A stretch of DNA of 64,000 bases, taken from the NCBI RefSeq assembly GCF_058153355.1, contig NZ_CM177019.1; one strand, given 5' to 3'. The translations under genes and the position numbers were made by a program. The notes below the pieces were generated by a model that saw nothing but the letters and a program-made list of their open reading frames with translations, was not told the origin of the DNA and ran no database searches. Shown here piece by piece: positions 17,096-59,240 of this stretch. How positions within the stretch are numbered: position 1 is the first letter of the stretch; each line of letters starts with the position of its first letter.

Positions 17096-18272
<1,177 letters not shown>

Positions 18273-19533: not shown

Positions 19534-19559
19534 TCTTCCCTCCACGACGTGTGCCTGAA

Positions 19560-19589
19560 CGCCCGCATATGCGGGCGTTTTGCTTTTTG
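19560..19589 (+). terminator. Rho-independent terminator of uspA
   Basis: GC hairpin cgcccgcatatgcgggcg followed by a T-run. Confidence 0.8.
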
Positions 19590-19638: not shown

Positions 19639-21996
19639 TGCGACAAGAAGTCGTCCAACATATTGTTTTGATAAATTATTTATATAAAACCAACTATTCC
19701 ATTAGTTGTAGCCTACTGAGGCAGGCAAAGCTGGTAACGGCTCTGTCTGAAGCCCTTGGGACAATGTAGCTTAGCAAATATTGCTTCAGTTAATCGTGAG
19801 AAAACCTGATCGCTACAAGCATCATGCGGCGAGAGCGCTAGGCTGGGCGGTATGGTTAACATAGTGAACTGTCGTTAAACGTCGTAACAGAGAACGAGCC
19901 AAAGATGCTGATAGGCTTGCACCAAAAGGTAAGGGGTAAGGCTATTCCTGTTCGTAGTGGGAATACATGGACAATAACTCCCCCGGCGGATAGACAGAAC
20001 CTAACCCGTTCTTTGTATGTTGGTCGGAACTTGGTAAGCCCGAATTCTCGCCCTAGTGGCAGGGGCACCGTAAGGCAAACTGATGAGAATGCGGGTAAAG
20101 GAGGATGGAAAAAGCGAAAGCCGGACTGTAATCGTGCGGATAGAGGTTCAATATTTGCCTTAACGGGAAACCGTGCTGACTTCCATCTGGTCTTTAATTG
20201 CGAAACATCTGCGAAGGTTTCTTTGGATGACATGTATGAAAATTACATCTAACAATGTAACTGCGGTCATCAACGGAAAAGGTTGGCATTCCATTAACTG
20301 GAAGAAATGCCATCAACACGTTAAAACCATACAGACAAGAATCGCAAAGGCGGCATGTAACCAGCAATGGCGTACAGTCGGTAGATTGCAACGATTGCTG
20401 GTTCGCTCATTCAGCGCCAGAGCACTGGCGGTGAAACGAGTTACGGAAAATAGCGGGCGTAAAACCCCCGGAGTTGATGGTCAAATCTGGAGTACTCCAG
20501 AATCAAAATGGGAAGCGATATTCAAACTCAGGCGAAAAGGGTACAAGCCCCTACCGCTAAAAAGAGTTTTTATACCCAAATCTAATGGCAAGAAAAGACC
20601 ATTAGGAATCCCCGTCATGCTTGACAGGGCAATGCAGGCCCTGCATCTGCTGGGATTGGAGCCTGTATCGGAAACTAATGCAGATCACAACAGTTATGGT
20701 TTCAGACCAGCGCGATGTACGGCTGACGCCATTCAACAGGTATGTAATATGTATAGTTCCCGGAACGCCTCGAAATGGGTTCTGGAAGGCGATATTAAAG
20801 GATGCTTTGAACACATTAGCCACGAGTGGCTGCTTGAAAATATTCCTATGGACAAGCAAATACTCCGTAATTGGTTGAAAGCCGGGATCATCGAAAAAAG
20901 CATATTCAGCAAAACTCTCTCGGGTACACCCCAGGGAGGAATCATATCTCCAGTTCTGGCAAACATGGCCCTGGATGGACTGGAAAGACTGCTGCAAAAT
21001 CGCTTTGGTCCGAAACGCTCAAAAACATTCAGGAAACATCAGGTTCACTTCGTCCGGTATGCTGATGATTTCATCATTTCCGGAAAGTCGAAAGAACTTC
21101 TGGAGGAGAATGTTCTTCCGTTGGTGAAATCATTTCTTGCAGAAAGAGGGCTGACGTTATCCGAAGAGAAAACGGTCATCACTCACATTACTGACGGATT
21201 TGATTTCCTTGGGCAGCACGTCCGACGCTTCGGTAGAAAACTCATAATCAGACCAGCCAAGAAAAACGTTAAACAATTTCTTAGCAAGATCAGAGAGACT
21301 ATTGAAGGTAACCGAACGGTTCCTGCATGGGTGCTAATAAATCTGCTTAATCCAATCATCACCGGGTGGGCAAACTATCACCAACATGTAGCATCGGCAG
21401 AGACATTTAACTATGTCGACAACCAAATCTGGCGCAAAATCTGGCAGTGGTGCAGAAGGAGACATCCCGGCAAAGGCCGGAGATGGATCTTCCGAAAGTA
21501 CCACACGACAATAAAAATGTGTCATGGTCGATTTTATGGAGTCGATCCGGAGGGTAGGAAATATGTTCTGTCCCGGGCCAGCGACATCCATATTAATCGC
21601 TATATAAAAATAAAGGGAACGGCAAATCCATATGATCCCGAGTGGGAAACATACTTCGAAAGAAGGCTGGACTACTCATGGAAGAAATCCCAACAGGGGC
21701 AGAAAAGGATTCTCGCTATATGGAAAAGGCAAGGATCGCGCTGCCCTTTATGTGAGCAACCGATTAATCGCGATACAGGATGGAATGTTCATCATTTGCT
21801 CAAGAAATCTCTTGGCGGTAGCGATGATGTGAGCAATTTAGTCCTACTCCATCCCAACTGCCATCGACAACTACATAGTAATGACGCTGGTCTCCCACAA
21901 GGTGGAGGCTTATAAAGGCTTGAGCGGTATGCGGGGAAACTCGCACGTACCGTTCTTAGGGGGCGGCGAGACAGTAATGAATCGCTGCTACCCGAC
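19639..21996 (+). mobile_element. Group II intron (about 2.36 kb) with an intron-encoded protein in domain IV; boundaries inferred
   Basis: Starts GTGCG right after the REP; about 590 nt of non-coding structured RNA (domains I-III); 580-aa RT/maturase/HNH ORF; domain V-like hairpin gagcggtatgcggggaaactcgcacgtaccgttc (21922-21955) 7 nt after the ORF stop; domain VI-like stem with a bulged A at about 21990. Confidence 0.8.
20227..21915 (+). CDS. Group II intron-encoded protein: reverse transcriptase, maturase (X), DNA-binding and HNH endonuclease domains
   Basis: RT motifs (RPLGIP, GFRP, SGTPQGGIISP, YADDFII), maturase motif GWANYHQH, C-terminal HNH (CPLCEQPI…HHLLKK…HPNCH); start could be ATG 20227 or 20236. 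Confidence 0.85.
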   Translation: MTCMKITSNNVTAVINGKGWHSINWKKCHQHVKTIQTRIAKAACNQQWRTVGRLQRLLVRSFSARALAVKRVTENSGRKTPGVDGQIWSTPESKWEAIFKLRRKGYKPLPLKRVFIPKSNGKKRPLGIPVMLDRAMQALHLLGLEPVSETNADHNSYGFRPARCTADAIQQVCNMYSSRNASKWVLEGDIKGCFEHISHEWLLENIPMDKQILRNWLKAGIIEKSIFSKTLSGTPQGGIISPVLANMALDGLERLLQNRFGPKRSKTFRKHQVHFVRYADDFIISGKSKELLEENVLPLVKSFLAERGLTLSEEKTVITHITDGFDFLGQHVRRFGRKLIIRPAKKNVKQFLSKIRETIEGNRTVPAWVLINLLNPIITGWANYHQHVASAETFNYVDNQIWRKIWQWCRRRHPGKGRRWIFRKYHTTIKMCHGRFYGVDPEGRKYVLSRASDIHINRYIKIKGTANPYDPEWETYFERRLDYSWKKSQQGQKRILAIWKRQGSRCPLCEQPINRDTGWNVHHLLKKSLGGSDDVSNLVLLHPNCHRQLHSNDAGLPQGGGL

Positions 21997-22209: not shown

Positions 22210-23679
22210 ATGAATACAACAACACCCATGGGGATGCTGCAGCAACCTCGCCCATTTTTCATGATCTTTTTTGTCGAGTTATGGGAGCGATTCGGCTACT
22301 ACGGCGTGCAGGGCGTACTGGCGGTTTTCTTCGTTAAACAGCTTGGATTCTCGCAAGAGCAGGCTTTTGTCACTTTTGGTGCGTTTGCTGCGCTGGTCTA
22401 TGGCCTCATTTCCATTGGCGGCTATGTCGGCGACCACCTGCTGGGGACCAAACGCACCATTGTTCTCGGAGCACTTGTGCTGGCGATTGGCTACTTCATG
22501 ACCGGCATGTCGCTACTTAAGCCTGACCTGATTTTCATCGCCCTGGGGACTATCGCTGTCGGTAACGGCCTGTTTAAAGCTAACCCTGCCAGCTTGCTTT
22601 CGAAGTGCTATCCACCGAAAGATCCGCGGCTTGATGGCGCATTCACCCTGTTCTATATGTCGATCAATATCGGCTCGTTGATAGCGTTATCATTGGCCCC
22701 TGTGATCGCTGATAGATTCGGCTATTCAGTCACCTACAACCTGTGCGGTGCGGGGTTAATTATCGCGCTATTGGTTTACATCGCCTGTCGTGGAATGGTG
22801 AAAAACATTGGTTCTGAACCCGACTTCAAGCCGATGAGCTTCAGCAAACTGTTGTACGTATTACTTGGCAGCGTGGTGATGATCTTCGTCTGTGCATGGC
22901 TGATGCACAACGTAGAAGTCGCCAATCTGGTGCTGATTGTTCTCTCCATCATCGTCACCATCATCTTCTTTCGTCAGGCATTCAAGCTGGATAAAACCGG
23001 GCGCAATAAAATGTTTGTTGCCTTTGTCCTGATGCTCGAAGCGGTGGTGTTTTACATTCTCTACGCCCAGATGCCAACGTCGCTGAACTTCTTTGCCATC
23101 AACAACGTGCATCATGAAATTCTCGGCTTTTCCATCAACCCGGTCAGCTTCCAGGCGCTTAACCCGTTCTGGGTGGTACTCGCCAGCCCAATACTGGCAG
23201 GTATCTACACGCATTTGGGTAACAAAGGCAAAGACCTCTCGATGCCGATGAAATTTACTCTCGGTATGTTTATGTGCTCGCTGGGCTTTTTGACGGCTGC
23301 AGCTGCGGGAATGTGGTTTGCTGATGCACAAGGGCTGACATCGCCATGGTTTATCGTGCTGGTTTACTTATTCCAGAGTTTAGGTGAACTGTTTATTAGT
23401 GCCCTTGGCCTGGCGATGATTGCTGCCCTGGTGCCGCAGCATTTGATGGGCTTTATTCTCGGGATGTGGTTCCTGACGCAGGCTGCCGCGTTCTTGCTGG
23501 GCGGCTATGTGGCAACATTTACCGCAGTACCAGACAACATTACCGATCCGCTTGAGACGTTGCCCGTCTATACCAGCGTGTTTGGTAAAATTGGCCTGGT
23601 TACGCTGGGCGTTGCAGTAGTGATGCTGTTGATGGTGCCGTGGCTGAAACGCATGATTGAGACGCCGGAAAGCCATTAA
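22210..23679 (+). CDS. dtpB: Dipeptide/tripeptide permease DtpB (POT family)
   Basis: 489-aa polytopic membrane protein with the POT-family motif ERFGYYGVQ. Confidence 0.9.
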
Positions 23680-27646: not shown

Positions 27647-28999
27647 ATGACTAAACACTATGATTACATCGCCATCGGCGGCGGCAGCGGCGGTATCGCC
27701 TCCATCAACCGCGCGGCTATGTACGGTCAGAAATGCGCGCTGATTGAAGCCAAAGAACTGGGCGGCACCTGCGTGAATGTTGGCTGCGTGCCGAAAAAAG
27801 TGATGTGGCACGCGGCGCAAATCCGTGAAGCGATCCACATGTACGGCCCGGATTATGGTTTCGATACCACCATCAATAAGTTCAACTGGGAAACGTTGAT
27901 CGCCAGCCGTACCGCCTATATCGACCGTATTCATACCTCCTATGAAAACGTGCTCAGTAAAAATAACGTTGATGTAATCAAAGGCTTTGCCCGCTTCGTT
28001 GATGCCAAAACCATTGAAGTAAACGGCGAAACCATCACGGCCGATCATATCCTGATCGCCACCGGCGGTCGCCCGAGCCACCCGGATATTCCGGGCGTGG
28101 AATACGGTATTGATTCCGATGGCTTCTTCGCCCTTCCTGCTTTGCCAGAGCGTGTAGCGGTTGTTGGCGCGGGTTACATCGCCGTTGAACTGGCGGGTGT
28201 GATTAACGGCCTCGGCGCAAAGACGCATCTGTTTGTTCGTAAACATGCGCCGCTGCGCAGCTTCGACCCGATGATCTCTGAAACGCTGGTCGAAGTGATG
28301 AACGCCGAAGGTCCGCAGTTGCACACCAACGCCATCCCGAAAGCGGTCGTGAAAAATGCTGATGGCAGCCTGACGCTGGAGCTGGAAGATGGTCGCAGTG
28401 AAACGGTGGATTGCCTGATTTGGGCGATTGGTCGTGAGCCTGCCAATGACAACATTAACCTCGAAGCCGCTGGCGTAAAAACCAACGAAAAAGGCTATAT
28501 CGTCGTCGATAAATATCAAAATACCAGCGTTGAAGGTATTTACGCGGTGGGCGATAACACGGGCGCAGTGGAACTGACACCGGTGGCAGTTGCAGCAGGC
28601 CGCCGCCTCTCTGAACGCCTGTTTAATAACAAGCCGGATGAGCATCTGGATTACAGCAATATTCCGACCGTGGTCTTCAGCCATCCGCCGATTGGGACTG
28701 TTGGTTTAACGGAACCGCAGGCGCGCGAGCAATACGGCGACGATCAGGTGAAAGTGTATAAATCCTCTTTCACCGCGATGTATACCGCCGTCACCACTCA
28801 CCGCCAGCCGTGCCGCATGAAGCTGGTGTGCGTTGGACCGGAAGAGAAGATTGTCGGTATTCATGGCATTGGCTTTGGTATGGATGAAATGTTGCAGGGC
28901 TTCGCGGTGGCGCTGAAGATGGGCGCAACCAAAAAAGACTTCGACAATACCGTCGCCATTCACCCAACGGCGGCAGAAGAGTTCGTTACCATGCGTTAA
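27647..28999 (+). CDS. gor: Glutathione reductase
   Basis: 450-aa ORF with FAD-binding GGGSGG and redox-active disulfide [13 protein letters not shown]. Confidence 0.95.
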
Positions 29000-29052
29000 A
29001 TGTTAAAGGGCAAAGAGTGGTGTGCTCTTTGCCCTTAGTTACGTTTCCGCTA

Positions 29053-29136
29053 TCAGTTCAGAAGCTGAAGCAAGAAGCGGATCAGTTCCAGCAGCGCAAT
29101 TAACGCCCCAAGAACGATGATTGCTTTATCAATCAC
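29053..29136 (-). CDS. dinQ: Type I toxin DinQ (27-aa membrane peptide), GTG start
   Basis: Reverse strand translates to VIDKAIIVLGALIALLELIRFLLQLLN, a hydrophobic peptide; lies between gor and arsR as I recall for dinQ. Confidence 0.7.
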   Translation of the reverse strand: MIDKAIIVLGALIALLELIRFLLQLLN

Positions 29137-29213
29137 CCGTTTTCTCCATGCGATGGAGTGAGAATGCATCCGCTTACTCATCCACTGCCTGTCACGGCGC
29201 ATGCCTCATTGTT

Positions 29214-29244
29214 AGATGTGGGCAATCTCACTCCGGCCAGAGCA
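29214..29244 (+). repeat. agrA: agrA/agrB-type direct repeat, copy 1 (region encoding sRNAs antisense to dinQ mRNA)
   Basis: tagatgtgggcaatctcactccggccagagc is repeated at 29412; sRNA ends not determined. Confidence 0.5.
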
Positions 29245-29411
29245 TCAGTTAACGGCACCACCCGTACCACTGATCAGGTCTTTGAAAGCGTTTATGCGCA
29301 TTACCAGAGTGAAAATGCCTCAGAGCTAACTGGATAATCATACAGTGTAATTAGGCTAAATAACCAGCATAACCTTGCAATGTCTCTTTTAAGGTAATAG
29401 CATGGAAAAGT

Positions 29412-29491
29412 TAGATGTGGGCATTCTCACTCCAGCCAGAGCCACCAACTCAGGCCTGGAAAGTAAAAGACCGACGTAAGTCGGTTTTTTT
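29412..29491 (+). ncRNA. agrB: agrB-like sRNA region (repeat copy 2 plus intrinsic terminator)
   Basis: Repeat tagatgtgggcattctcactccagccagagcc followed by hairpin aaagaccgacgtaagtcggt and a T-run. Confidence 0.5.
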
Positions 29492-29643
29492 ACATCCGGA
29501 TTCAGACCTCCTTTCAAATGAATACCCAACTCAAAATTCACACCTATTACCTTCCTCTGCACTTACACATTCGTTAAAACATATATGTTTTTGACTTATC
29601 CGCTTCGAAGAGAGACACTACCTGCAACAATCAGGAGCGCAAT

Positions 29644-29997
29644 ATGTCATTTCTGTTACCCATCCAATTGTTCAAAATTCTTGCCGATGAAACCCGTCTG
29701 GGCATCGTTTTACTGCTCAGCGAACTGGGAGAGTTATGCGTCTGCGATCTCTGCACTGCCCTCGATCAGTCGCAGCCCAAGATCTCCCGCCATCTGGCAT
29801 TACTGCGTGAAAGTGGGCTATTGCTGGACCGCAAGCAAGGAAAGTGGGTTCATTACCGTTTATCGCCGCATATTCCAACATGGGCGGCGAAAATTATTGA
29901 GCAGGCCTGGCGATGCGAACAGGTAAAGGTTCAGGTGATTGTCCGTAACCTCGCCAGACAAAATTGTTCCGCAGACAGTAAGAATATTTGTAGTTAA
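29644..29997 (+). CDS. arsR: Arsenical resistance operon repressor ArsR
   Basis: 117-aa ORF with the metal-binding ELCVCDLC motif in the HTH region. Confidence 0.95.
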   Translation: MSFLLPIQLFKILADETRLGIVLLLSELGELCVCDLCTALDQSQPKISRHLALLRESGLLLDRKQGKWVHYRLSPHIPTWAAKIIEQAWRCEQVKVQVIVRNLARQNCSADSKNICS

Positions 29998-31353: not shown

Positions 31354-31779
31354 ATGAGCAACATTACTATTTATCACAACCCGGCCTGCGGCACGTCGCG
31401 TAATACGCTGGAGATGATTCGCAACAGCGGTACAGAACCGACCATTATCTATTATCTGGAAACACCGCCCACACGCGATGAGCTGGTCAAACTCATTGCC
31501 GATATGGGGATTTACGTACGCGCGCTGTTGCGTAAAAACGTCGAGCCGTATGAGGAACTGGGCCTTGCAGAAGATAAATTTACTGACGATCGGTTAATCG
31601 ACTTTATGCTTCAGCACCCGATTCTGATTAATCGCCCGATTGTGGTGACGCCGCTGGGAACTCGCCTGTGCCGCCCTTCAGAAGTGGTGCTGGAAATTCT
31701 GCCAGATGCGCAACAAGGCGCGTTCACCAAGGAAGATGGCGAGAAAGTGGTTGATGAAGCGGGTAAACGGTTGAAATAA
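31354..31779 (+). CDS. arsC: Arsenate reductase ArsC (glutaredoxin-coupled)
   Basis: 141-aa ORF MSNITIYHNPACGTSRNTLEMIR with catalytic Cys in the NPACGTSR motif. Confidence 0.95.
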   Translation: MSNITIYHNPACGTSRNTLEMIRNSGTEPTIIYYLETPPTRDELVKLIADMGIYVRALLRKNVEPYEELGLAEDKFTDDRLIDFMLQHPILINRPIVVTPLGTRLCRPSEVVLEILPDAQQGAFTKEDGEKVVDEAGKRLK

Positions 31780-31782
31780 CTA

Positions 31783-31807
31783 AAGGGGGATATGCCCCCT
31801 TATTTGT
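31783..31807. terminator. Hairpin terminator shared by arsC and the convergent ArsR-family gene
   Basis: aaagggggatatgccccctt followed by tatttg. Confidence 0.6.
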
Positions 31808-32120
31808 TCTCCGCGGCTCCTTCGCCATCTGTTTTGCTGTTTACGCAGCACTCCTCACGTAAGAATTCAATTATCGCTTCCAGCATTGCGTATTGCGAAA
31901 CACACATCAGCGTCCGACTCTCACGGTTTTGTTTGACCAACCCTACCGATACCAGTGCTGAAATATGGTGACTGAGTGTAGAGCCGGGTATCCCAAGCTG
32001 CTTTTGCAACTCACCGACCGGCAACCCTTGTTCCCCCGCTTTGACCAGATGCTTAAATATGAACAAACGGGTCGGATGACCTAACTCTTTCAGTGCCTTA
32101 GCGACCTCTTCCAATTGCAT
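31800..32120 (-). CDS. ArsR/SmtB-family metalloregulator (second copy; C-terminal Cys pair)
   Basis: 106-aa ORF with a wHTH region (LPVGELQKQLGIPGSTLSHHISALVSVGLV) and C-terminal …REECCVNS; divergent from a permease gene. Confidence 0.75.
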   Translation of the reverse strand: MQLEEVAKALKELGHPTRLFIFKHLVKAGEQGLPVGELQKQLGIPGSTLSHHISALVSVGLVKQNRESRTLMCVSQYAMLEAIIEFLREECCVNSKTDGEGAAENK

Positions 32121-32215: not shown

Positions 32216-33229
32216 ATGAGGTTACTTATGAGTAGTTGGCTTGCGATGCTGCAAGATGCCGTAGAGATGTTTGTGTTTCTCGCCGTCGAGCTTTCTTTGC
32301 TGTTTATGGTGATTAGTGCCGGTGTCAGCCTGATAAGACAAAAGGTGCCAGACCATAAAATCCAGCAGATGATGGGGGCCAGAAAAGGGAGAGGCTATCT
32401 CCTGGCTGCTCTGTTGGGAGCCGTTACCCCGTTCTGTAGTTGCTCGACAATACCCATGCTACGTGGATTGTTGTCAGCGAAAGCCGGGTTTGGTCCGACT
32501 CTCACTTTTTTATTTGTTTCACCGTTACTTAATCCCATTATCGTCGGGTTAATGTGGGTGACCTTTGGTTGGAAAGTTACCTTGTTGTACGCGATTATCG
32601 CCGCCGGCGTCTCCGTACTTGCCAGTATTATCTTGGATTCTCTGAGATTTGAACGTCATATCATTGCCAGTAAAAGCTCATCAGCAAATTGTTGCTCTCC
32701 AGCCAAAACTTCGCCGGGGACGACATATACGCCAATAAAAGTGAGTTGCTGTAGTCCAGCGGCTAAAGCCATTGAGAAACCTGTAGTAAACTGTTGCAGT
32801 ACCAAAGCTGTGGTAAGTATTAATCCCATAAAACTAGCCACCAAAGATGCGTTGCAACAGTTTAAAGATGTACTGCCATATCTTTTGTTAGGGGTATTAA
32901 TAGGCTCTTTTATTTATGGCTTTATTCCCTCAGAGTGGATTGCCGCTCATGCAGGGGCAGATAATCCCTTCGCCATCCCATTGAGCGCCGTTGTCGGAAT
33001 CCCGCTGTATATCCGGGCAGAGGCGGTTATCCCTCTGGCATCTGTTCTGATGACAAAAGGAATGGGTCTGGGAGCATTAATGGCATTAATCATCGGCAGT
33101 GCCGGCGCAAGTCTGACAGAAGTGATATTACTTAAATCAATGTTCAGAATACCGATGATAGTTGCATTCCTGACGGTTATCTTAGGTATGGCTATCTTGA
33201 TGGGCTATTTGACTCAAATGCTATTTTAA
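32216..33229 (+). CDS. arsP: ArsP-like organoarsenical efflux permease with a Cys-rich loop
   Basis: 337-aa membrane protein containing TPFCSCSTIP, which I recall as the ArsP signature; internal Cys-rich segment with three CC dipeptides (NCCSPAK…SCCSPAAK…NCCSTKA). Confidence 0.7.
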   Translation: MRLLMSSWLAMLQDAVEMFVFLAVELSLLFMVISAGVSLIRQKVPDHKIQQMMGARKGRGYLLAALLGAVTPFCSCSTIPMLRGLLSAKAGFGPTLTFLFVSPLLNPIIVGLMWVTFGWKVTLLYAIIAAGVSVLASIILDSLRFERHIIASKSSSANCCSPAKTSPGTTYTPIKVSCCSPAAKAIEKPVVNCCSTKAVVSINPIKLATKDALQQFKDVLPYLLLGVLIGSFIYGFIPSEWIAAHAGADNPFAIPLSAVVGIPLYIRAEAVIPLASVLMTKGMGLGALMALIIGSAGASLTEVILLKSMFRIPMIVAFLTVILGMAILMGYLTQMLF

Positions 33230-33374: not shown

Positions 33375-34800
33375 TAATGCCGATCAGTTAAGGATCAGTT
33401 GACCGATCCAGTGGCTGTGTAAGAATCCGGAAACGCTCACTTGTTTCCGGATTTTTTTATGCACATTGGACAGGCTCTTGATCTGGTATCCCGTTACGAT
33501 TCTCTGCGTAACCCACTGACTTCTCTGGGGGATTACCTCGACCCCGAACTCATCTCTCGTTGCCTTGCCGAATCAGGTACTGTAACGCTACGCAAGCGCC
33601 GTCTTCCCCTCGAAATGATGGTCTGGTGTATTGTTGGCATGGCGCTTGAGCGTAAAGAACCTCTTCACCAGATTGTGAATCGCCTGGACATCATGCTGCC
33701 GGGCAATCGCCCCTTCGTTGCCCCCAGTGCCGTTATTCAGGCCCGCCAGCGCCTGGGAAGTGAGGCTGTCCGCCGCGTGTTCACGAAAACAGCGCAGCTC
33801 TGGCATAACGCCACGCCGCATCCGCACTGGTGCGGCCTGACCCTGCTGGCCATCGATGGTGTGTTCTGGCGCACACCGGATACACCAGAGAACGATGCAG
33901 CCTTCCCCCGCCAGACACATGCCGGGAACCCGGCGCTCTACCCGCAGGTCAAAATGGTCTGCCAGATGGAACTGACCAGCCATCTGCTGACGGCTGCAGC
34001 CTTCGGCACGATGAAGAACAGCGAAAATGAGCTTGCTGAGCAACTTATAGAACAAACCGGCGATAACACTCTGACGTTAATGGATAAAGGTTATTACTCA
34101 CTGGGACTGTTAAATGCCTGGAGCCTGGCGGGAGAACACCGCCACTGGATGATACCTCTCAGAAAGGGAGCGCAATATGAAGAGATCAGAAAACTGGGTA
34201 AAGGCGATCATCTGGTGAAGCTGAAAACCAGCCCGCAGGCACGAAAAAAGTGGCCGGGACTGGGAAATGAAGTGACAGCCCGCCTGCTGACCGTGACGCG
34301 CAAAGGAAAAGTCTGCCATCTGCTGACGTCGATGACGGACGCCATGCGCTTCCCCGGAGGAGAAATGGCGGATCTGTACAGTCATCGCTGGGAAATCGAA
34401 CTGGGATACAGGGAGATAAAACAGACGATGCAACTGAGCAGGCTGACGCTGAGAAGTAAAAAGCCGGAGCTTGTGGAGCAAGAGCTGTGGGGTGTCTTAC
34501 TGGCTTATAATCTGGTGAGATATCAGATGATTAAAATGGCGGAACATCTGAAAGGTTACTGGCCGAATCAACTGAGTTTCTCAGAATCATGCGGAATGGT
34601 GATGAGAATGCTGATGACATTGCAGGGCGCTTCACCGGGACGTATACCGGAGCTGATGCGCGATCTTGCAAGTATGGGACAACTTGTGAAATTACCGACA
34701 AGAAGGGAAAGGGCCTTCCCGAGAGTGGTAAAGGAGAGGCCCTGGAAATACCCCACAGCCCCGAAAAAGAGCCAGTCAGTTGCTTAACTGACTGGCATTA
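33375..34800 (+). mobile_element. IS4 (1426 bp) nested inside the IS66-family element
   Basis: Terminal sequences TAATGCCGATCAG… and …CTGACTGGCATTA; 12-bp target duplication CTCTCCGGGAAG at 33363-33374 and 34801-34812; length matches the 1426 bp I recall for IS4. Confidence 0.9.
33459..34787 (+). CDS. insG: IS4 transposase InsG
   Basis: 442-aa product from [16 protein letters not shown]…; DDE transposase. Confidence 0.9.
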
Positions 34801-35197
34801 CTCTCCGGGAAGGCCTAAAGGGTGCCTGAATTATCCTCCTGAATTCAAACAACGACTCATAGAAGCATCATTCCAGCCAGGTGTTTCAATTTCCAGACTG
34901 GCCCTGGACAATGGTATTAATGCCAATCTGTTGTTCAAATGGCGTCAGAAATGGCGGCAGGGGAAGATAAAATTGCCATCATCAGAATCAGGCAGAGAAT
35001 CTCAGTTAATTCCTGTCACTATTGATGCCCAACTCCCAACTGCTCCGGCTAATGAGCCACTGACCGCAAGACCGTCAGTAACACCGGAAATACACAGCAT
35101 CTCCTGTGAGATTACGTTCAGAAACGGCACCCTTCGGTTGAACGGGGCAGTGAATGAAAATCTGCTGTCCTTGCTTATACAGGAGCTGAGACGGTGA
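34801..35197 (+). pseudogene. IS66-family tnpA (orf1), 3' portion downstream of the IS4 insertion
   Basis: Same frame as the 5' fragment; joined product is about 143 aa; stop overlaps tnpB start. Confidence 0.7.
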
Positions 35198-35541
35198 TAT
35201 CTCTCCCTGCAGGTTCGCGTATCTGGCTGGTTGCAGGTATCACCGATATGCGAAATGGCTTTAACGGCCTGGCCTCAAAAGTTCAGAACGTCCTGAAGGA
35301 TGACCCGTTCTCCGGGCATCTGTTCATCTTCCGCGGACGCCGGGGTGACCAGATAAAAGTGTTGTGGGCTGACAGTGACGGACTGTGCCTCTTCACCAGA
35401 CGCCTGGAGCGGGGCCGCTTCGTCTGGCCGGTCACCCGTGACGGCAAGGTGCACCTTACTCCGGCCCAGTTATCCATGCTTCTTGAGGGCATCGACTGGA
35501 AACACCCGAAACGAACGGAACGCGCTGGCATCCGCATATAA
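35194..35541 (+). CDS. IS66-family TnpB (orf2)
   Basis: 115-aa ORF (MISLPAGSRIWLVAGITDMRNGFNGLA…), typical of IS66 orf2. Confidence 0.85.
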   Translation: MISLPAGSRIWLVAGITDMRNGFNGLASKVQNVLKDDPFSGHLFIFRGRRGDQIKVLWADSDGLCLFTRRLERGRFVWPVTRDGKVHLTPAQLSMLLEGIDWKHPKRTERAGIRI

Positions 35542-35560
35542 CCCGTTGTAAAGTGAGGAT

Positions 35561-37132
35561 ATGGACACCTCACTTGCTCATGAGAATGCCCGCCTGCGGG
35601 CACTGTTGCAGACGCAACAGGACACCATCCGCCAGATGGCGAAATACAACCGCCTGCTCTCACAGCGGGTGGCGGCTTATGCTTCCGAAATCAACCGGCT
35701 GAAGGCGCTGGTTGCAAAACTGCAGCGCATGCAGTTCGGTAAAAGCTCAGAAAAACTTCGTGCAAAAACCGAACGGCAGATACAGGAAGCACAGGAGCGA
35801 ATCAGCGCTCTTCAGGAAGAAATGGCGGAAACGCTGGGTGAGCAATATGACCCGGTACTGCCATCTCCCCTGCGCCAGTCTTCAGCCCGTAAACCGTTAC
35901 CTGCCTCACTTCCCCGTGAAACCCGGGTCATCCGTCCGGAAGAGGAATGCTGCCCGGCCTGTGGTGGCGAACTCAGTTCTCTGGGATGTGATGTGTCAGA
36001 GCAACTGGAGCTTATCAGCAGCGCCTTTAAGGTTATCGAAACACAACGTCCGAAACTGGCCTGTTGCCGGTGCGACCATATCGTGCAGGCTCCGGTGCCT
36101 TCAAAACCCATTGCACGCAGTTATGCCGGAGCGGGGCTTCTGGCCCATGTTGTCGCTGGAAAATATGCAGACCATCTGCCGTTATACCGCCAGTCAGAAA
36201 TATACCGTCGTCAGGGCGTGGAGCTGAGCCGTGCCACACTGGGGCGCTGGACAGGTGCTGTTGCTGAACTGCTGGAACCGCTGTATGACATCCTGCGCCA
36301 GTATGTGCTGATGCCCGGTAAAGTCCATGCCGATGATATCCCCGTTCCGGTCCAGGAGCCGGGCAGCGGTAAAACAAGGACTGCCCGGCTGTGGGTCTAC
36401 GTTCGTGATGACCGTAACGCCGGTTCGGAAATGCCTCCGGCGGTCTGGTTCGCGTACAGCCCGGACCGGAAAGGTATCCATCCACAGAATCATCTGGCCG
36501 GTTACAGCGGAGTGCTTCAGGCCGATGCTTACGGTGGTTACCGGGCGTTGTACGAATCCGGCAGAATAACGGAAGCCGCATGTATGGCTCATGCCCGGAG
36601 AAAAATCCACGATGTGCATGCAAGAGTGCCCACCGACATCACCACGGAAGCCCTGCAGCGTATCGGTGAACTGTATGCCATCGAGGCAGAGGTCCGGGGC
36701 TGTTCAGCAGAACAGCGTCTGGCGGCAAGAAAAGCCAGAGCCGCGCCACTGATGCAGTCACTGTATGACTGGATACAGCAACAGATGAAAACACTGTCGC
36801 GTCACTCGGACACGGCAAAAGCGTTCGCATACCTGCTGAAACAGTGGGATGCACTGAACGTGTACTGCAGTAATGGCTGGGTGGAAATCGACAACAACAT
36901 CGCAGAGAACGCCTTACGGGGAGTGGCCGTAGGCCGGAAAAACTGGCTCTTCGCGGGTTCTGACAGCGGTGGTGAACATGCTGCGGTGTTGTACTCGCTG
37001 ATCGGCACATGCCGTCTGAACAATGTGGAGCCAGAAAAGTGGCTGCGTTACGTCATTGAACATATCCAGGACTGGCCGGCAAACCGGGTACGCGATCTGT
37101 TGCCCTGGAAAGTTGATCTGAGCTCTCAGTAA
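35561..37132 (+). CDS. IS66-family transposase TnpC (orf3)
   Basis: 523-aa ORF with an N-terminal leucine-zipper-like region, a CxxC…CxxC zinc-finger-like segment (CPACGG…CCRCDH) and a DDE domain. Confidence 0.85.
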
Positions 37133-41583: not shown

Positions 41584-43566
41584 TTACCATTGATAACTAA
41601 CGAAAATTTTTCCGTTACGACCATCCTGTGGGATGCCTTGCGGCGACCAGTACTCTTTGTCGAAGGCGTTGCCCAATACCAGAGTAGTGGTCATACCTTT
41701 GAGCGCCTGCTGCCCTTGATAACTGACGTAGAAATCATTCACACCATAGCCAGGTTGTTTGCTGTAACTGCTGCTGATATGTGTTGAGCGATCGGCAAAC
41801 GTACCGACCCAACCAACAGAGAAGCCACTGTGAGCGATCGGAATATTCAGGGTGCTGGTAACGGTATCCGGGTTAATACTGGAAATATATTCCCCGGTAT
41901 CGGTGTCTTTGCCGCGGGTACGGTTATAGGCCACATCAAGGCTAAACAGATCAGTGGTATATTTCGTCATCACATCCCAGCCCCAGATTTTGGCGTTCGG
42001 GACGTTATACGACATAGTTGTCGCCGCCGCGAAATCGACAGTCGTGGAGATGTAATCCTTCGCTTTGGTATCAAAGTAGCTGGCTTTAAATTCCAGGGCA
42101 TCATTGGACAACATCAGGTCATCAAAACGCAGCCCAAAACCGTACTCCTGAGTTTCGTTAGTTTCCGGACGTAAGTTCGGGTTTGGCACCCAATAGTTGG
42201 TATAGAAGCGACCAATCGAGAAGTGCTTAGAATCGTTATACATTTCGCCCATCGTCGGGGCGCGGAATGCCTGGGCATATGAGCCAAATAACATCAGCCA
42301 GTTGGTCGGGTTGATAGTCATCCCCGCACGAGATGACCATTTGTCAGCATCAACATCTTTGTAGCCGTCGCTGCTACCGTGATAACTGTCATAGCGGGTT
42401 CCGCCAAGCAGGGTAATCGGCAGATCGCGTAAGGTGATCTCATCCTGTAGCCAGCCAGAGCTAAAATCGATTTTTGCTTGCGGAAAGCCCGTCGTCGCGC
42501 CACCCGGATGTTGTTCCTGACGATAATACTCACCGCCATATGTCAGTAAGTGAGAAGCGAAACTGTCGGCAAATAGAGTGGAACGGTTCTCCAGCCTGGC
42601 TCCTTTTGTTATCTGTTCACGATACTCGCCGGAACTCCCCGTGTTTTGCGCATTAATACGGACTTCCGACCAGTAAATTTTTGCATCTGCATTTAACCAG
42701 TCGTTGCCCTGCGGGGCGAGTTTATAAGAAAGCTGCGCATCGCGTTGAATTGTTGAACGATCAACCATCGGGTTGCTGTTTTCAGAAGCCTCAACGGTCT
42801 GCGGATTTTTTGGTTCACGCGCGTCGTTGTTGTAGTAACGCACTAAACCGCTCAGAGACTGGGCTGAATCAATTTGCCAGGTCCCTTTCGCCAGCATGTT
42901 ATTAATGGACTCGTCATTCGGCGCGGTTTCACCATTGCTCTGGCGTAAATCACCCCGATCGCGACTGGACCAGGCCACAATACCATCCAGATTTTCAGTT
43001 CGCCCAAACGCGCTCGCGCCTAATCCCAGGCTATGGTCCCCCGTGCCACCAGTACCAAAGACACGAAAACCACTACTTTGTCCTTCCTGCAATAAATCTT
43101 TTGCATCGACCGTATCGTAGGAGATCACCCCACCCAGCGCGCCACTGCCATACAGTAATGCTGAAGGTCCGCGAACAATCTCAACACGCTTGATCAGCGC
43201 CGGATCGAGAAAAGTACCATTCAGATGTCCGGTATCCGTTCCCTGGCGAACACCATCGACAAGAACCAGCACGCCGCGATGATCATAGCCACGCATATTT
43301 ACATCCTGACCGTTGGTTCGTCCGGTACCATCAAGAGTAATTCCAGGAACATGACGCAGCAGATCGGTGGCTGAAGTAGCCGTTTGATTTTCAGGAGCGG
43401 AAGTGTCGATGACGCTGACCATCATAGGCGCTTCGAAGGAACTACGGGCATTCCCCGTTGCCGTAACGGTCATGGTTTCAGTAGCAAAAGCAAACGTTGG
43501 CAAGGTGGCAGAAACAGCCAAAGCCAACAAACTCAAACGCAACGAGGTAAATTGCGGACGTGACAT
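41584..43566 (-). CDS. chuA: TonB-dependent outer-membrane haem receptor ChuA
   Basis: 660-aa ORF with signal peptide, plug domain and C-terminal aromatic residue (…FVSYQW); Fur box upstream. Confidence 0.9.
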   Translation of the reverse strand: MSRPQFTSLRLSLLALAVSATLPTFAFATETMTVTATGNARSSFEAPMMVSVIDTSAPENQTATSATDLLRHVPGITLDGTGRTNGQDVNMRGYDHRGVLVLVDGVRQGTDTGHLNGTFLDPALIKRVEIVRGPSALLYGSGALGGVISYDTVDAKDLLQEGQSSGFRVFGTGGTGDHSLGLGASAFGRTENLDGIVAWSSRDRGDLRQSNGETAPNDESINNMLAKGTWQIDSAQSLSGLVRYYNNDAREPKNPQTVEASENSNPMVDRSTIQRDAQLSYKLAPQGNDWLNADAKIYWSEVRINAQNTGSSGEYREQITKGARLENRSTLFADSFASHLLTYGGEYYRQEQHPGGATTGFPQAKIDFSSGWLQDEITLRDLPITLLGGTRYDSYHGSSDGYKDVDADKWSSRAGMTINPTNWLMLFGSYAQAFRAPTMGEMYNDSKHFSIGRFYTNYWVPNPNLRPETNETQEYGFGLRFDDLMLSNDALEFKASYFDTKAKDYISTTVDFAAATTMSYNVPNAKIWGWDVMTKYTTDLFSLDVAYNRTRGKDTDTGEYISSINPDTVTSTLNIPIAHSGFSVGWVGTFADRSTHISSSYSKQPGYGVNDFYVSYQGQQALKGMTTTLVLGNAFDKEYWSPQGIPQDGRNGKIFVSYQW

Positions 43567-43855
43567 AGCGATTCTCCATGAGGAAAATAAAAAATGCTGG
43601 CTGCCTGGGTTAATACCGGGGTGGCTTGCGAGAAATAAATTTATTTAAAATTCAGAGCGATAATATTCGCCGGGTGAGTTTACAGGCGTTTATATCCCAT
43701 GAAATTGCCTGGTATCTCGGCAAATACGCAAAAGCACGCCCTCTTTGTCAGGCAAAACGATATGCCCCATCAGGAGTGAAGAGCGCTGTGCGTTATCCCT
43801 TGCAAATGCTATGGTTTTGTTATCCATATGGTCGTGTTTTGTTAAGCGCGAACGT

Positions 43856-53148: not shown

Positions 53149-53486
53149 TCAGGACATAATTAACTGAAAATGATGGCAGGCATGAAGAGGGATGCAGATG
53201 CTGATTTCATTATCCCCGGTGATGACTAAAGGAGAGGCGAAAACGACTTTATTCCCCTGGTATGTGTATCCACCAGTAGAACCCTTCGTTGCCCGAATGC
53301 TGGCAGGAACTGTTGGCAGAACGGCAACATTTTTTTTGTCGTTGACCTCACCATGTCGATCACTGTGCTTGCATCCCATCTTACTGGCTGACAACCCCAC
53401 TATGCCGCTGGTCTGTAAATCCCTCATACCTCTCCTCGCGCGCAATTTAAAGAACCGTTATATCTCAAGAATTTTCAGGGACTAAA

Positions 53487-59111: not shown

Positions 59112-59216
59112 TTTAACTTACTGAGAGCACAAAGTTTCCCGTGCCAACAGGGAGTGTTATAACGGTTTATTAGTCTGGAGACGGCAGACTATCCTCTTCC
59201 CGGTCCCCTATGCCGG
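59112..59216 (+). ncRNA. gadY: GadY sRNA (approximate; antisense to the gadX 3' region)
   Basis: gadW-gadX intergenic region with a plus-strand intrinsic terminator (cccggtcccctatgccggg plus T-run) ending about 59216; 5' end estimated from my recollection of gadY length. Confidence 0.5.
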
Positions 59217-59240
59217 GTTTTTTTTATGTCTGGGTAAAAA

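Follow-up and report, generated by a model that had tools for sequence, protein, structure and literature searches.

Our analysis identified, in the intergenic space at positions 29000-29643 of the 64,000-nucleotide stretch of DNA under study (hereafter the window), what is very probably a chromosomal type I toxin-antitoxin locus of the dinQ/agr kind with a single antitoxin gene. Two near-identical repeats on the plus strand of this region are both partners of one RNA-RNA interaction, one being the target within the toxin gene and the other the antisense region of the antitoxin. The evidence comprises the anatomy of the locus, its homology to known loci, the complementarity of the two RNAs, their co-variation among related loci, and in silico folds. 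The dinQ/agrB system is already characterized and is recognized by RefSeq, NCBIfam and Rfam. The features of the locus are listed in Table 1.

Table 1. Features of the dinQ/agr locus, with positions numbered along the window.
Feature	Position	Strand	Description	Basis
Common gor/dinQ hairpin	29006..29036	both	Bidirectional terminator; followed by TTTAACATTT on the minus strand	Inverted repeat
dinQ CDS	29053..29136	-	GTG start, 27 codons, TGA stop; predicted single-pass membrane toxin	Translation, K-12 identity, NF041472
Element 4 (AUGGAG)	29144..29149	-	Contains the SD GGAG (29144-29147)	Mapped from A182-G187 (PMC5066626)
Element 3, anti-SD UUCUCACUCCAU	29153-29164	-	Extends to 29167 as the 14-nt stretch 29154-29167	Inverted repeats
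Agr-binding site of the dinQ mRNA (nt 88-119)	29212..29243	-	Includes element 2	Repeat, K-12 alignment, complementarity
Element 2	29225..29237	-	Within the Agr target	
+44 processing site	about 29286/29287	-	Processing would remove element 1	K-12 mapping
Element 1 (UUUUCACUCUGGU)	29303..29315	-	Predicted to pair with element 2 in the full-length +1 transcript	
dinQ +1 (inferred)	29330	-		K-12 mapping
Putative LexA operator	29328..29347	both	Core at 29330-29345	Pattern search, K-12 alignment
Agr promoter	29375..29403	+	Putative; -35 TTGCAA (29375-29380), 17-nt spacer, -10 TAGCAT (29398-29403)	Sequence reading
Agr antisense sRNA	29411..29492	+	Antisense region 29411-29442, internal stem-loop, terminator hairpin and U-run 29465-29492	Rfam, complementarity and structure

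An earlier note, made by inspection of the sequence, had placed a dinQ locus between gor and arsR, and this placement holds: gor (27647-28999, plus strand) has its stop at 28999 and arsR (29644-29997, plus strand) starts at 29644. The dinQ gene lies between the two and is convergent with gor, and the order gor-dinQ-agr-arsR is that of the E. coli loci with which we compared it. The hairpin shared by gor and dinQ was flagged on the plus strand by the terminator scan; in K-12, the dinQ terminator is located just downstream of the gor stop (PMC3567139). When the whole intergenic region was compared with 5,422 complete E. coli genomes, the best identity was 95.3%, while the flanking prlC-gor segment is 90-95% identical to 5,298 of these genomes and nik-rbbA is 95-99% identical to 4,147 of them. 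The window appears to belong to an E. coli-like lineage in which this segment is locally divergent or mosaic. The allele carried by the window was absent from all seven loci of the species-representative genome scan.

The toxin gene is contained in a minus-strand ORF of 49 amino acids with an ATG start (29053-29202), whose last 27 codons, from the GTG at 29136, read VIDKAIIVLGALIALLELIRFLLQLLN. These correspond to the GTG-initiated ORF of 27 codons (29053-29136) that the earlier note had described, and its assignment to DinQ was confirmed on three grounds: identity of the peptide to K-12 DinQ; a match to the NCBIfam equivalog NF041472 ('toxin_DinQ'), whose cutoff of 30 bits is exceeded by a score of 54 bits (E = 1.4e-14), the score for the DqlB model being below its cutoff; and the presence in syntenic E. 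coli loci of an 84-nt RefSeq CDS annotated as 'damage-inducible type I toxin DinQ'. A Pfam scan of the peptide, performed with a version lacking a DinQ model, gave no match; PF28061:DinQ is recorded on one related contig. The conservation in related genomes on which the earlier note had made its reading depend was found, as all 13 complete genomes and 53 of 54 readable metagenome loci encode an identical DinQ peptide. A Shine-Dalgarno sequence GGAG (29147..29144) is located 7 nt upstream of the GUG. In K-12, initiation of dinQ at the GTG has been demonstrated, and the identical peptide is toxic and localizes to the inner membrane (PMC3567139). No second dinQ or dinQ-like gene was detected by blastn within the 64-kb window.

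It should be noted that the statement that ORF calling misses dinQ entirely stands for ab initio callers, as in the Logan assemblies, where dinQ is missed and a spurious ORF on the opposite strand is called in its place, but not for NCBI's pipeline, which annotates the gene. A plus-strand ORF of 59 amino acids (29158-29337), taken as a gene by some pipelines, was judged to be spurious, as it has no family match and is antisense to the dinQ 5' UTR.

Upstream of dinQ, where the earlier note had proposed to search for a LexA box, we identified the core CTGGATAATCATACAG, which is identical to that of K-12 and is also identical in 53 of the 54 readable metagenome loci and in all 13 complete genomes. 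Judged by its sequence, this element is a putative LexA operator, and it overlaps both the dinQ -10 element TATGAT (29342..29337) and the inferred +1 (29330, minus strand). The dinQ LexA operator of K-12 has an HI of 4.83 (PMC3567139). A second, weak LexA operator of K-12 has an HI of 13.82, and this one was not located with confidence in the window.

Because the interval from the ORF to the dinQ promoter is free of indels, the published K-12 coordinates (PMC5066626) could be transferred directly to the window through a gap-free alignment. All four published elements of the 5'-UTR switch are present at their K-12 positions. The 5' UTR differs from that of K-12 at 12 positions, six of which fall within the target core (nt 106-113). 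The MFE fold of the window +1 transcript shows the 1:2 and 3:4 pairings, with the SD hidden and nt 17-28 paired with nt 94-105, and that of the +44 form shows the 2:3 pairing, with the SD predicted to be paired with nt 89-92 and not open. When nt 88-119 were blocked as a mimic of bound Agr, the 3:4 pairing returned in the window fold. These folds were given little weight, because in the K-12 control the MFE fold misses the SHAPE-supported 2:3 pairing of the +44 form; they offer weak support for the switch and are unreliable for the +44 form.

The antitoxin gene is divergent from dinQ and does not overlap it. Only one full agr copy was found in the 64-kb window by blastn, and the window gave a single match to the Rfam AgrB model (RF02891; 29411-29493), which spans model positions 1-84 of 84 and scores 95.7 bits, the gathering score being 40; the same model gives 106.2 bits for K-12 agrA and 108.4 bits for K-12 agrB. 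The intrinsic terminator that the earlier note had seen after the second repeat was recovered as a G+C-rich hairpin followed by seven T. The putative Agr promoter matches the consensus at 8 of 12 positions and was unflagged by a simple promoter scan; it is homologous to the agrA promoter of K-12, whose TSS has been mapped (PMC3567139). Antitoxin activity, measured as repression of the +44 dinQ transcript, has been shown for AgrB of K-12 only (PMC3567139, PMC5066626).

The two near-identical plus-strand repeats described in the earlier note were found as direct repeats of 33 nt (29211-29243 and 29410-29442), which are identical at 31 of 33 positions (94%) and are located 199 nt apart. With an agr query searched against the 64-kb window (blastn-short), the first copy is matched with E = 1.6e-08, far beyond chance. 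A third copy, missed by the earlier note, is a perfect inverted one of 14 nt (29154-29167); on the dinQ mRNA it reads identically to Agr nt 11-24, and it includes the anti-SD element. The earlier note had taken the two direct repeats for duplicated agrA/agrB genes. A reading in which each is the start of a separate sRNA gene (agrA-like at 29211, agrB-like at 29410) would agree with their 94% identity on the same strand and with the existence of two agr genes in K-12, but we consider it extremely improbable. The repeat at 29211 has no Rfam match even at E<=10; its homology to agr is limited to 33 nt, beyond which neither an agr stem-loop nor an agr body follows; the terminator scan found no plus-strand terminator downstream of it before 29465; and no agr-type TTGCAA-17-TAGCAT promoter is present upstream. 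In addition, this repeat aligns to a K-12 copy located inside the dinQ transcription unit (463-496 of the K-12 locus L001), which K-12 carries besides agrA and agrB and which has been named the 'agrAB repeat of dinQ' (PMC3567139), the published antisense target being dinQ mRNA G88-A119 (PMC5066626). The alignment with K-12 also shows a clean 231-bp absence in the window. The repeat at 29211 is not an agrA-type gene and functions on the minus strand as a part of the toxin mRNA; its resemblance to a plus-strand repeat is due only to the target being transcribed in the opposite direction.

Alignment with the K-12 dinQ-agrAB region, suggested in the earlier note as a check, bore out the homology of dinQ, the target and agr, but not the two-gene arrangement: one agr unit, of 231 bp, is absent from the window relative to both K-12 and GF60, the same state being found in O111:H8 8E. 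Measured from the gor stop, the offsets in K-12 are 137 for dinQ, 412 for agrA, 643 for agrB and 877 for arsR, against 412 for agr and 645 for arsR in the window. The repeated element has three copies in K-12 (target, agrA and agrB) versus two in the window, and the Rfam AgrB model matches twice in K-12 and in GF60 and once in O111:H8 8E, as it does here. Copy-number classes in E. coli were drawn from an evenly spaced sample of 25 rows, which is rough and not a census. The two-copy locus (about 876 bp) accounts for 16 rows, the one-copy locus with arsR (645 bp) for three, the one-copy locus with arsRB deleted for two and a 408-bp form for three, the remaining row (an ETEC strain) having an IS200/IS605 insertion in the dinQ 5' UTR. 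The 408-bp form arose when the target repeat recombined with the agr repeat, with a loss of 199 bp that includes both promoters and the LexA box; in Nissle-type strains, a 199-bp deletion between direct repeats removes both promoters. The agr copy number ranges from 0 to 2 across Escherichia. Searches of E. coli genomes with the agr query gave a median of two places per genome, which is the only usable figure, as the total count of places is inflated by partial and plasmid (dql-associated) matches, with 242 places on E. coli plasmids. AgrA has been described as present only 'in some bacterial strains' (T1TAdb, PMC8594479).

A single agr gene could also arise as an assembly artefact, through the collapse of two tandem units. 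Such a collapse would account for 11 metagenome contigs that carry a single, poorly matched agr, in most of which the target is of the K-12 type and the agr core of the agrA type, the expected product; moreover, none of the five complete genomes with a K-12-type target is single-copy, and one two-copy contig (L027) has the exact target core of the window. Against this, single-copy loci of 645 bp are present in complete genomes (such as O111:H8 8E, 13TMH22 and 23CRST046), and the collapse of an L027-like locus would leave GATGGCTAT as the core at position A and not the GTGGGCATT of the window, as no more than 8 nt upstream of the core are shared. A contig from a public sequencing run, which may derive from the same isolate, is likewise 100% identical to the window over 7,353 bp and carries the same allele pair. 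Taken together, the single copy of the window is unlikely to be the product of tandem collapse. We attach a smaller probability still to the locus being a decaying remnant with no working toxin-antitoxin pair. Degenerate versions do exist, such as the promoter-deleted Nissle-type locus and the IS-disrupted locus of the ETEC strain, and the window is one agr unit short of K-12; but here the promoter sequences, the LexA core, elements 1-4, the SD, the GTG, the ORF and the terminators are all intact, the three nucleotide differences from K-12 in the ORF are all synonymous, and Agr carries changes that match the six target-core substitutions.

In K-12, AgrB is nearly fully complementary to its target; it both closes the SD and prevents translation, and it drives cleavage by RNase III, whereas AgrA, which has more mismatches, is without these effects (PMC3567139, PMC5066626). 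The two types were distinguished by whether the 5' ~31-34 nt are nearly fully complementary to dinQ mRNA nt 88-119. The window Agr pairs with the window dinQ at 30 of 32 positions (-59.1 kcal/mol), as compared with 31 of 32 (-58.2 kcal/mol) for AgrB and 25 of 32 (-42.7 kcal/mol) for AgrA against dinQ in K-12. Pairs formed across strains reach -38 to -46 kcal/mol, with 25 of 32 positions paired both for the window Agr against the K-12 dinQ (-46.2 kcal/mol) and for the K-12 AgrB against the window dinQ (-37.9 kcal/mol). Six of the nine target-core positions differ from K-12, and the changes in Agr match them. Taking into account the 30/32 pairing and these matched core changes, the single Agr is probably AgrB-like in function, despite being located at the promoter-proximal ('agrA') position. 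Since the core differs in a matched way and the agr copy number varies from 0 to 2, the K-12 labels 'AgrA inactive, AgrB active' are not transferable by position to other strains.

The matching of core sequences was followed in seven loci from species-representative genomes (E. albertii, E. whittamii, Escherichia sp. E1V33 and others), 55 metagenome contigs and 13 complete genomes (12 from the evenly spaced sample, plus K-12). The 9-nt target core falls into the classes AAGAACTCT, AATGGCATT, GACGACTAT and GTGGGC(A/T)(A/T)T, plus rare others. Each of the 13 complete genomes has at least one agr copy with the same or a wobble-compatible core, which reaches -51 kcal/mol or better against its own target. 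The matching copy is located at position B in K-12 and GF60 and at position A in E69, E. albertii, EH41 and O157:H7. Across eight distinct systems, and using the better-pairing copy of two-copy loci, 96.5% of cells are paired, and changes on both sides are seen in 7 of the 32 pairs, all of them at Agr nt 7-14; at most one of 500 shuffles reached these co-variation values, and register-slid controls were ~36% paired. An A.C mismatch at Agr nt 24 is conserved. Gene conversion between the direct repeats, and not selection for pairing, could be the source of this co-variation.

Well-matched agr copies were missing from 13 of 48 metagenome contigs, most of which are probably collapsed tandem repeats. 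Contigs in which a K-12-type target accompanies one poorly matched agr were considered as counter-evidence to co-variation and set aside as probable collapse, this combination being absent from the sampled complete genomes. The two-copy contig L027, with the target core of the window, carries GATGGCTAT at position A (-49.1 kcal/mol) and GTGGGCATT at position B (-59.1 kcal/mol), and two contigs encoding the identical Gor protein combine a different target core, GACGACTAT, with a non-cognate B copy, GTGGGCATT. The cores are, therefore, shuffled among the three positions. Tentatively, and with rather low confidence, we propose that the dinQ target, agrA and agrB form a three-copy family that swaps its 9-nt core, probably by gene conversion, so that Escherichia would have at least four or five specificity alleles of toxin mRNA and antitoxin sRNA that cross-react poorly with one another. 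The cognate antitoxin would then be located at either position, the second copy serving as a spare or reservoir, and the window would represent a distinct pair, GTGGGCAAT/GTGGGCATT, in a streamlined one-copy form.

Among the closest known systems is the dinQ-agrAB locus of K-12 (b4613, b4712 and b4713; Weel-Sneve 2013, PMC3567139; Kristiansen 2016, PMC5066626), with which the locus of the window shares the gor-arsR position, the peptide, the GTG start, the SD, the LexA core and the four switch elements, together with a divergent Agr sRNA composed of a 5' antisense region, a stem-loop and a terminator. It differs from K-12 in having one agr gene instead of two and an intergenic region of 644 bp instead of 876 bp, and in carrying its cognate sRNA beside the promoter. 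Single-agr E. coli loci such as those named above share the 645-bp layout, with one cognate agr beside the dinQ promoter, but have the core allele AATGGCATT/AATGGCATT, in contrast to GTGGGCAAT/GTGGGCATT in the window. The tisB/istR-1 and zorO/orzO systems are similar in organization (PMC3567139, PMC5397157, PMC8594479): in both, the sRNA is divergent and non-overlapping, the 5' UTR is processed, and the product is a small membrane toxin that is SOS-inducible or gated by its 5' UTR, with a translationally inert primary transcript, an active processed form and an antisense RNA, encoded in trans, whose binding site in the 5' UTR lies upstream of the RBS. By comparison with the literature, their sequences and peptides are unrelated to those of dinQ/agr and they occupy other chromosomal sites. 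Finally, the dql (dinQ-like) genes of Enterobacteriaceae chromosomes and plasmids have a related 5'-UTR architecture and peptide signature (PMC5066626), but the peptide of the window fits the DinQ equivalog and, at 14.9 bits, falls short of the cutoff of 35 for the DqlB model.

LexA control, processing, RNase III cleavage and toxicity are assigned to this locus by analogy with experiments in K-12. On this model, the dinQ promoter would be repressed by LexA, and DNA damage would lead to a minus-strand transcript of ~333 nt starting at 29330. In its full-length form, elements 1 and 2 would pair and the 3:4 hairpin would hide the SD, leaving the mRNA untranslated. Removal of the first 44 nt would free element 2 to pair with element 3, which would open the SD for translation of the 27-amino-acid DinQ from the GUG and its insertion into the inner membrane. 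The divergent Agr, which would be expressed constitutively, is predicted to pair through its first 32 nt with mRNA nt 88-119, including element 2, so that the 3:4 hairpin would re-form and an RNase III duplex would arise, keeping toxin synthesis low.

A useful outcome of this analysis is that the annotation of the window is corrected to one Agr antitoxin and an mRNA binding site. More generally, repeats that lie on the same strand near a type I toxin can represent both sides of a trans-antisense interaction and not duplicated sRNA genes, which calls for caution when such repeats are annotated. In the literature searched, we found no description of the matched core alleles or of the copy-number series from 0 to 2, which are variations within a known mechanism. 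The matched core differences between lineages may be of interest to specialists in RNA regulation and, if selection and not neutral conversion keeps the two sides matched, the locus would represent a natural case of co-diversifying RNA-RNA recognition within one species complex.

At nt 24 of the antisense sRNA Agr, the pairing with the target in the dinQ mRNA is broken by an A.C mismatch (29434 facing 29220 in the window; columns 24 and 45 of alignment A3), which is kept in seven of the eight distinct dinQ/agr systems compared. Only Escherichia sp. E1V33 departs from this, with A paired to U at the position. Secondary RNase III cuts in agrB have been mapped 5' of A24 and G25 (PMC5066626).

Two kinds of disrupted dinQ locus were found in other E. 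coli. In the Nissle-derived strain SYNB1934 (locus L004, 1631-1960), and also in loci H23 and H24, the target repeat in the dinQ 5' UTR has recombined with the agr repeat. The 199 bp between the repeats are deleted in this class, and with them the LexA box and the promoters of both dinQ and agr, leaving a dinQ ORF that is intact but promoterless and fused to the body of agr; arsR and arsB are likewise absent. In the ETEC isolate L7_E1373 (locus L005, 842-2623), a frameshifted IS200/IS605 tnpA and a TnpB-family gene interrupt the dinQ 5' UTR, and the annotated dinQ product is shorter (22 aa).

An ORF of 59 aa with a GTG start runs antisense to the dinQ 5' UTR. It appears as a gene call in Logan assemblies and as a "hypothetical protein" in some RefSeq genomes (WP_001333228.1, WP_001306359.1). 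Searches against Pfam and NCBIfam returned no family match for this ORF, which is probably a spurious gene call.

This ORF and the remaining features of the window are listed in the table below. The group II intron at 19690-21996 (+) is complete; it is flanked on one side by a terminator-like hairpin (~19559-19585) and on the other by a POT-family transporter gene (22210-23679). The shuA/chuA, ES205 and GadY elements are all Rfam matches at gathering level, and the match to the chuA leader implies that a haem-uptake cluster is present in the window.

Features of the window, with positions, strand and basis or remarks
Feature	Position	Strand	Basis or remarks
IS110-family transposase gene	17096-18076	-	
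Group II intron domains D1-D4	19690-19837	+	Rfam, 112.5 bits
Intron-encoded protein ORF	20173-21915	+	Domains RVT_N, RVT_1, GIIM, HNH
Group II intron 3' catalytic domains	21920-21996	+	Rfam, 65.5 bits
59-aa ORF	29158-29337	+	
arsC	31354-31779		
Second ArsR-family HTH gene	31800-32120	-	Just after arsC
ArsP_1-family permease gene	32216-33229	+	Divergent from second ArsR-family HTH gene
IS4-family transposase gene	33441-34787	+	
IS66-family genes	34589-37132	+	
shuA/chuA 5'-UTR thermoregulator	43564-43595	-	Rfam, 60.1 bits
ES205 sRNA	53266-53337	+	Rfam, 105 bits
GadY	59117-59230	+	Rfam, 150 bits

Finally, an 83-nt agr query matched 242 places on E. coli plasmids (e.g., NZ_OY754458.1, 27950-27984), with a maximum of eight places within one E. 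coli genome. These plasmid-borne sequences presumably correspond to the antisense RNAs of dinQ-like (dql) loci.
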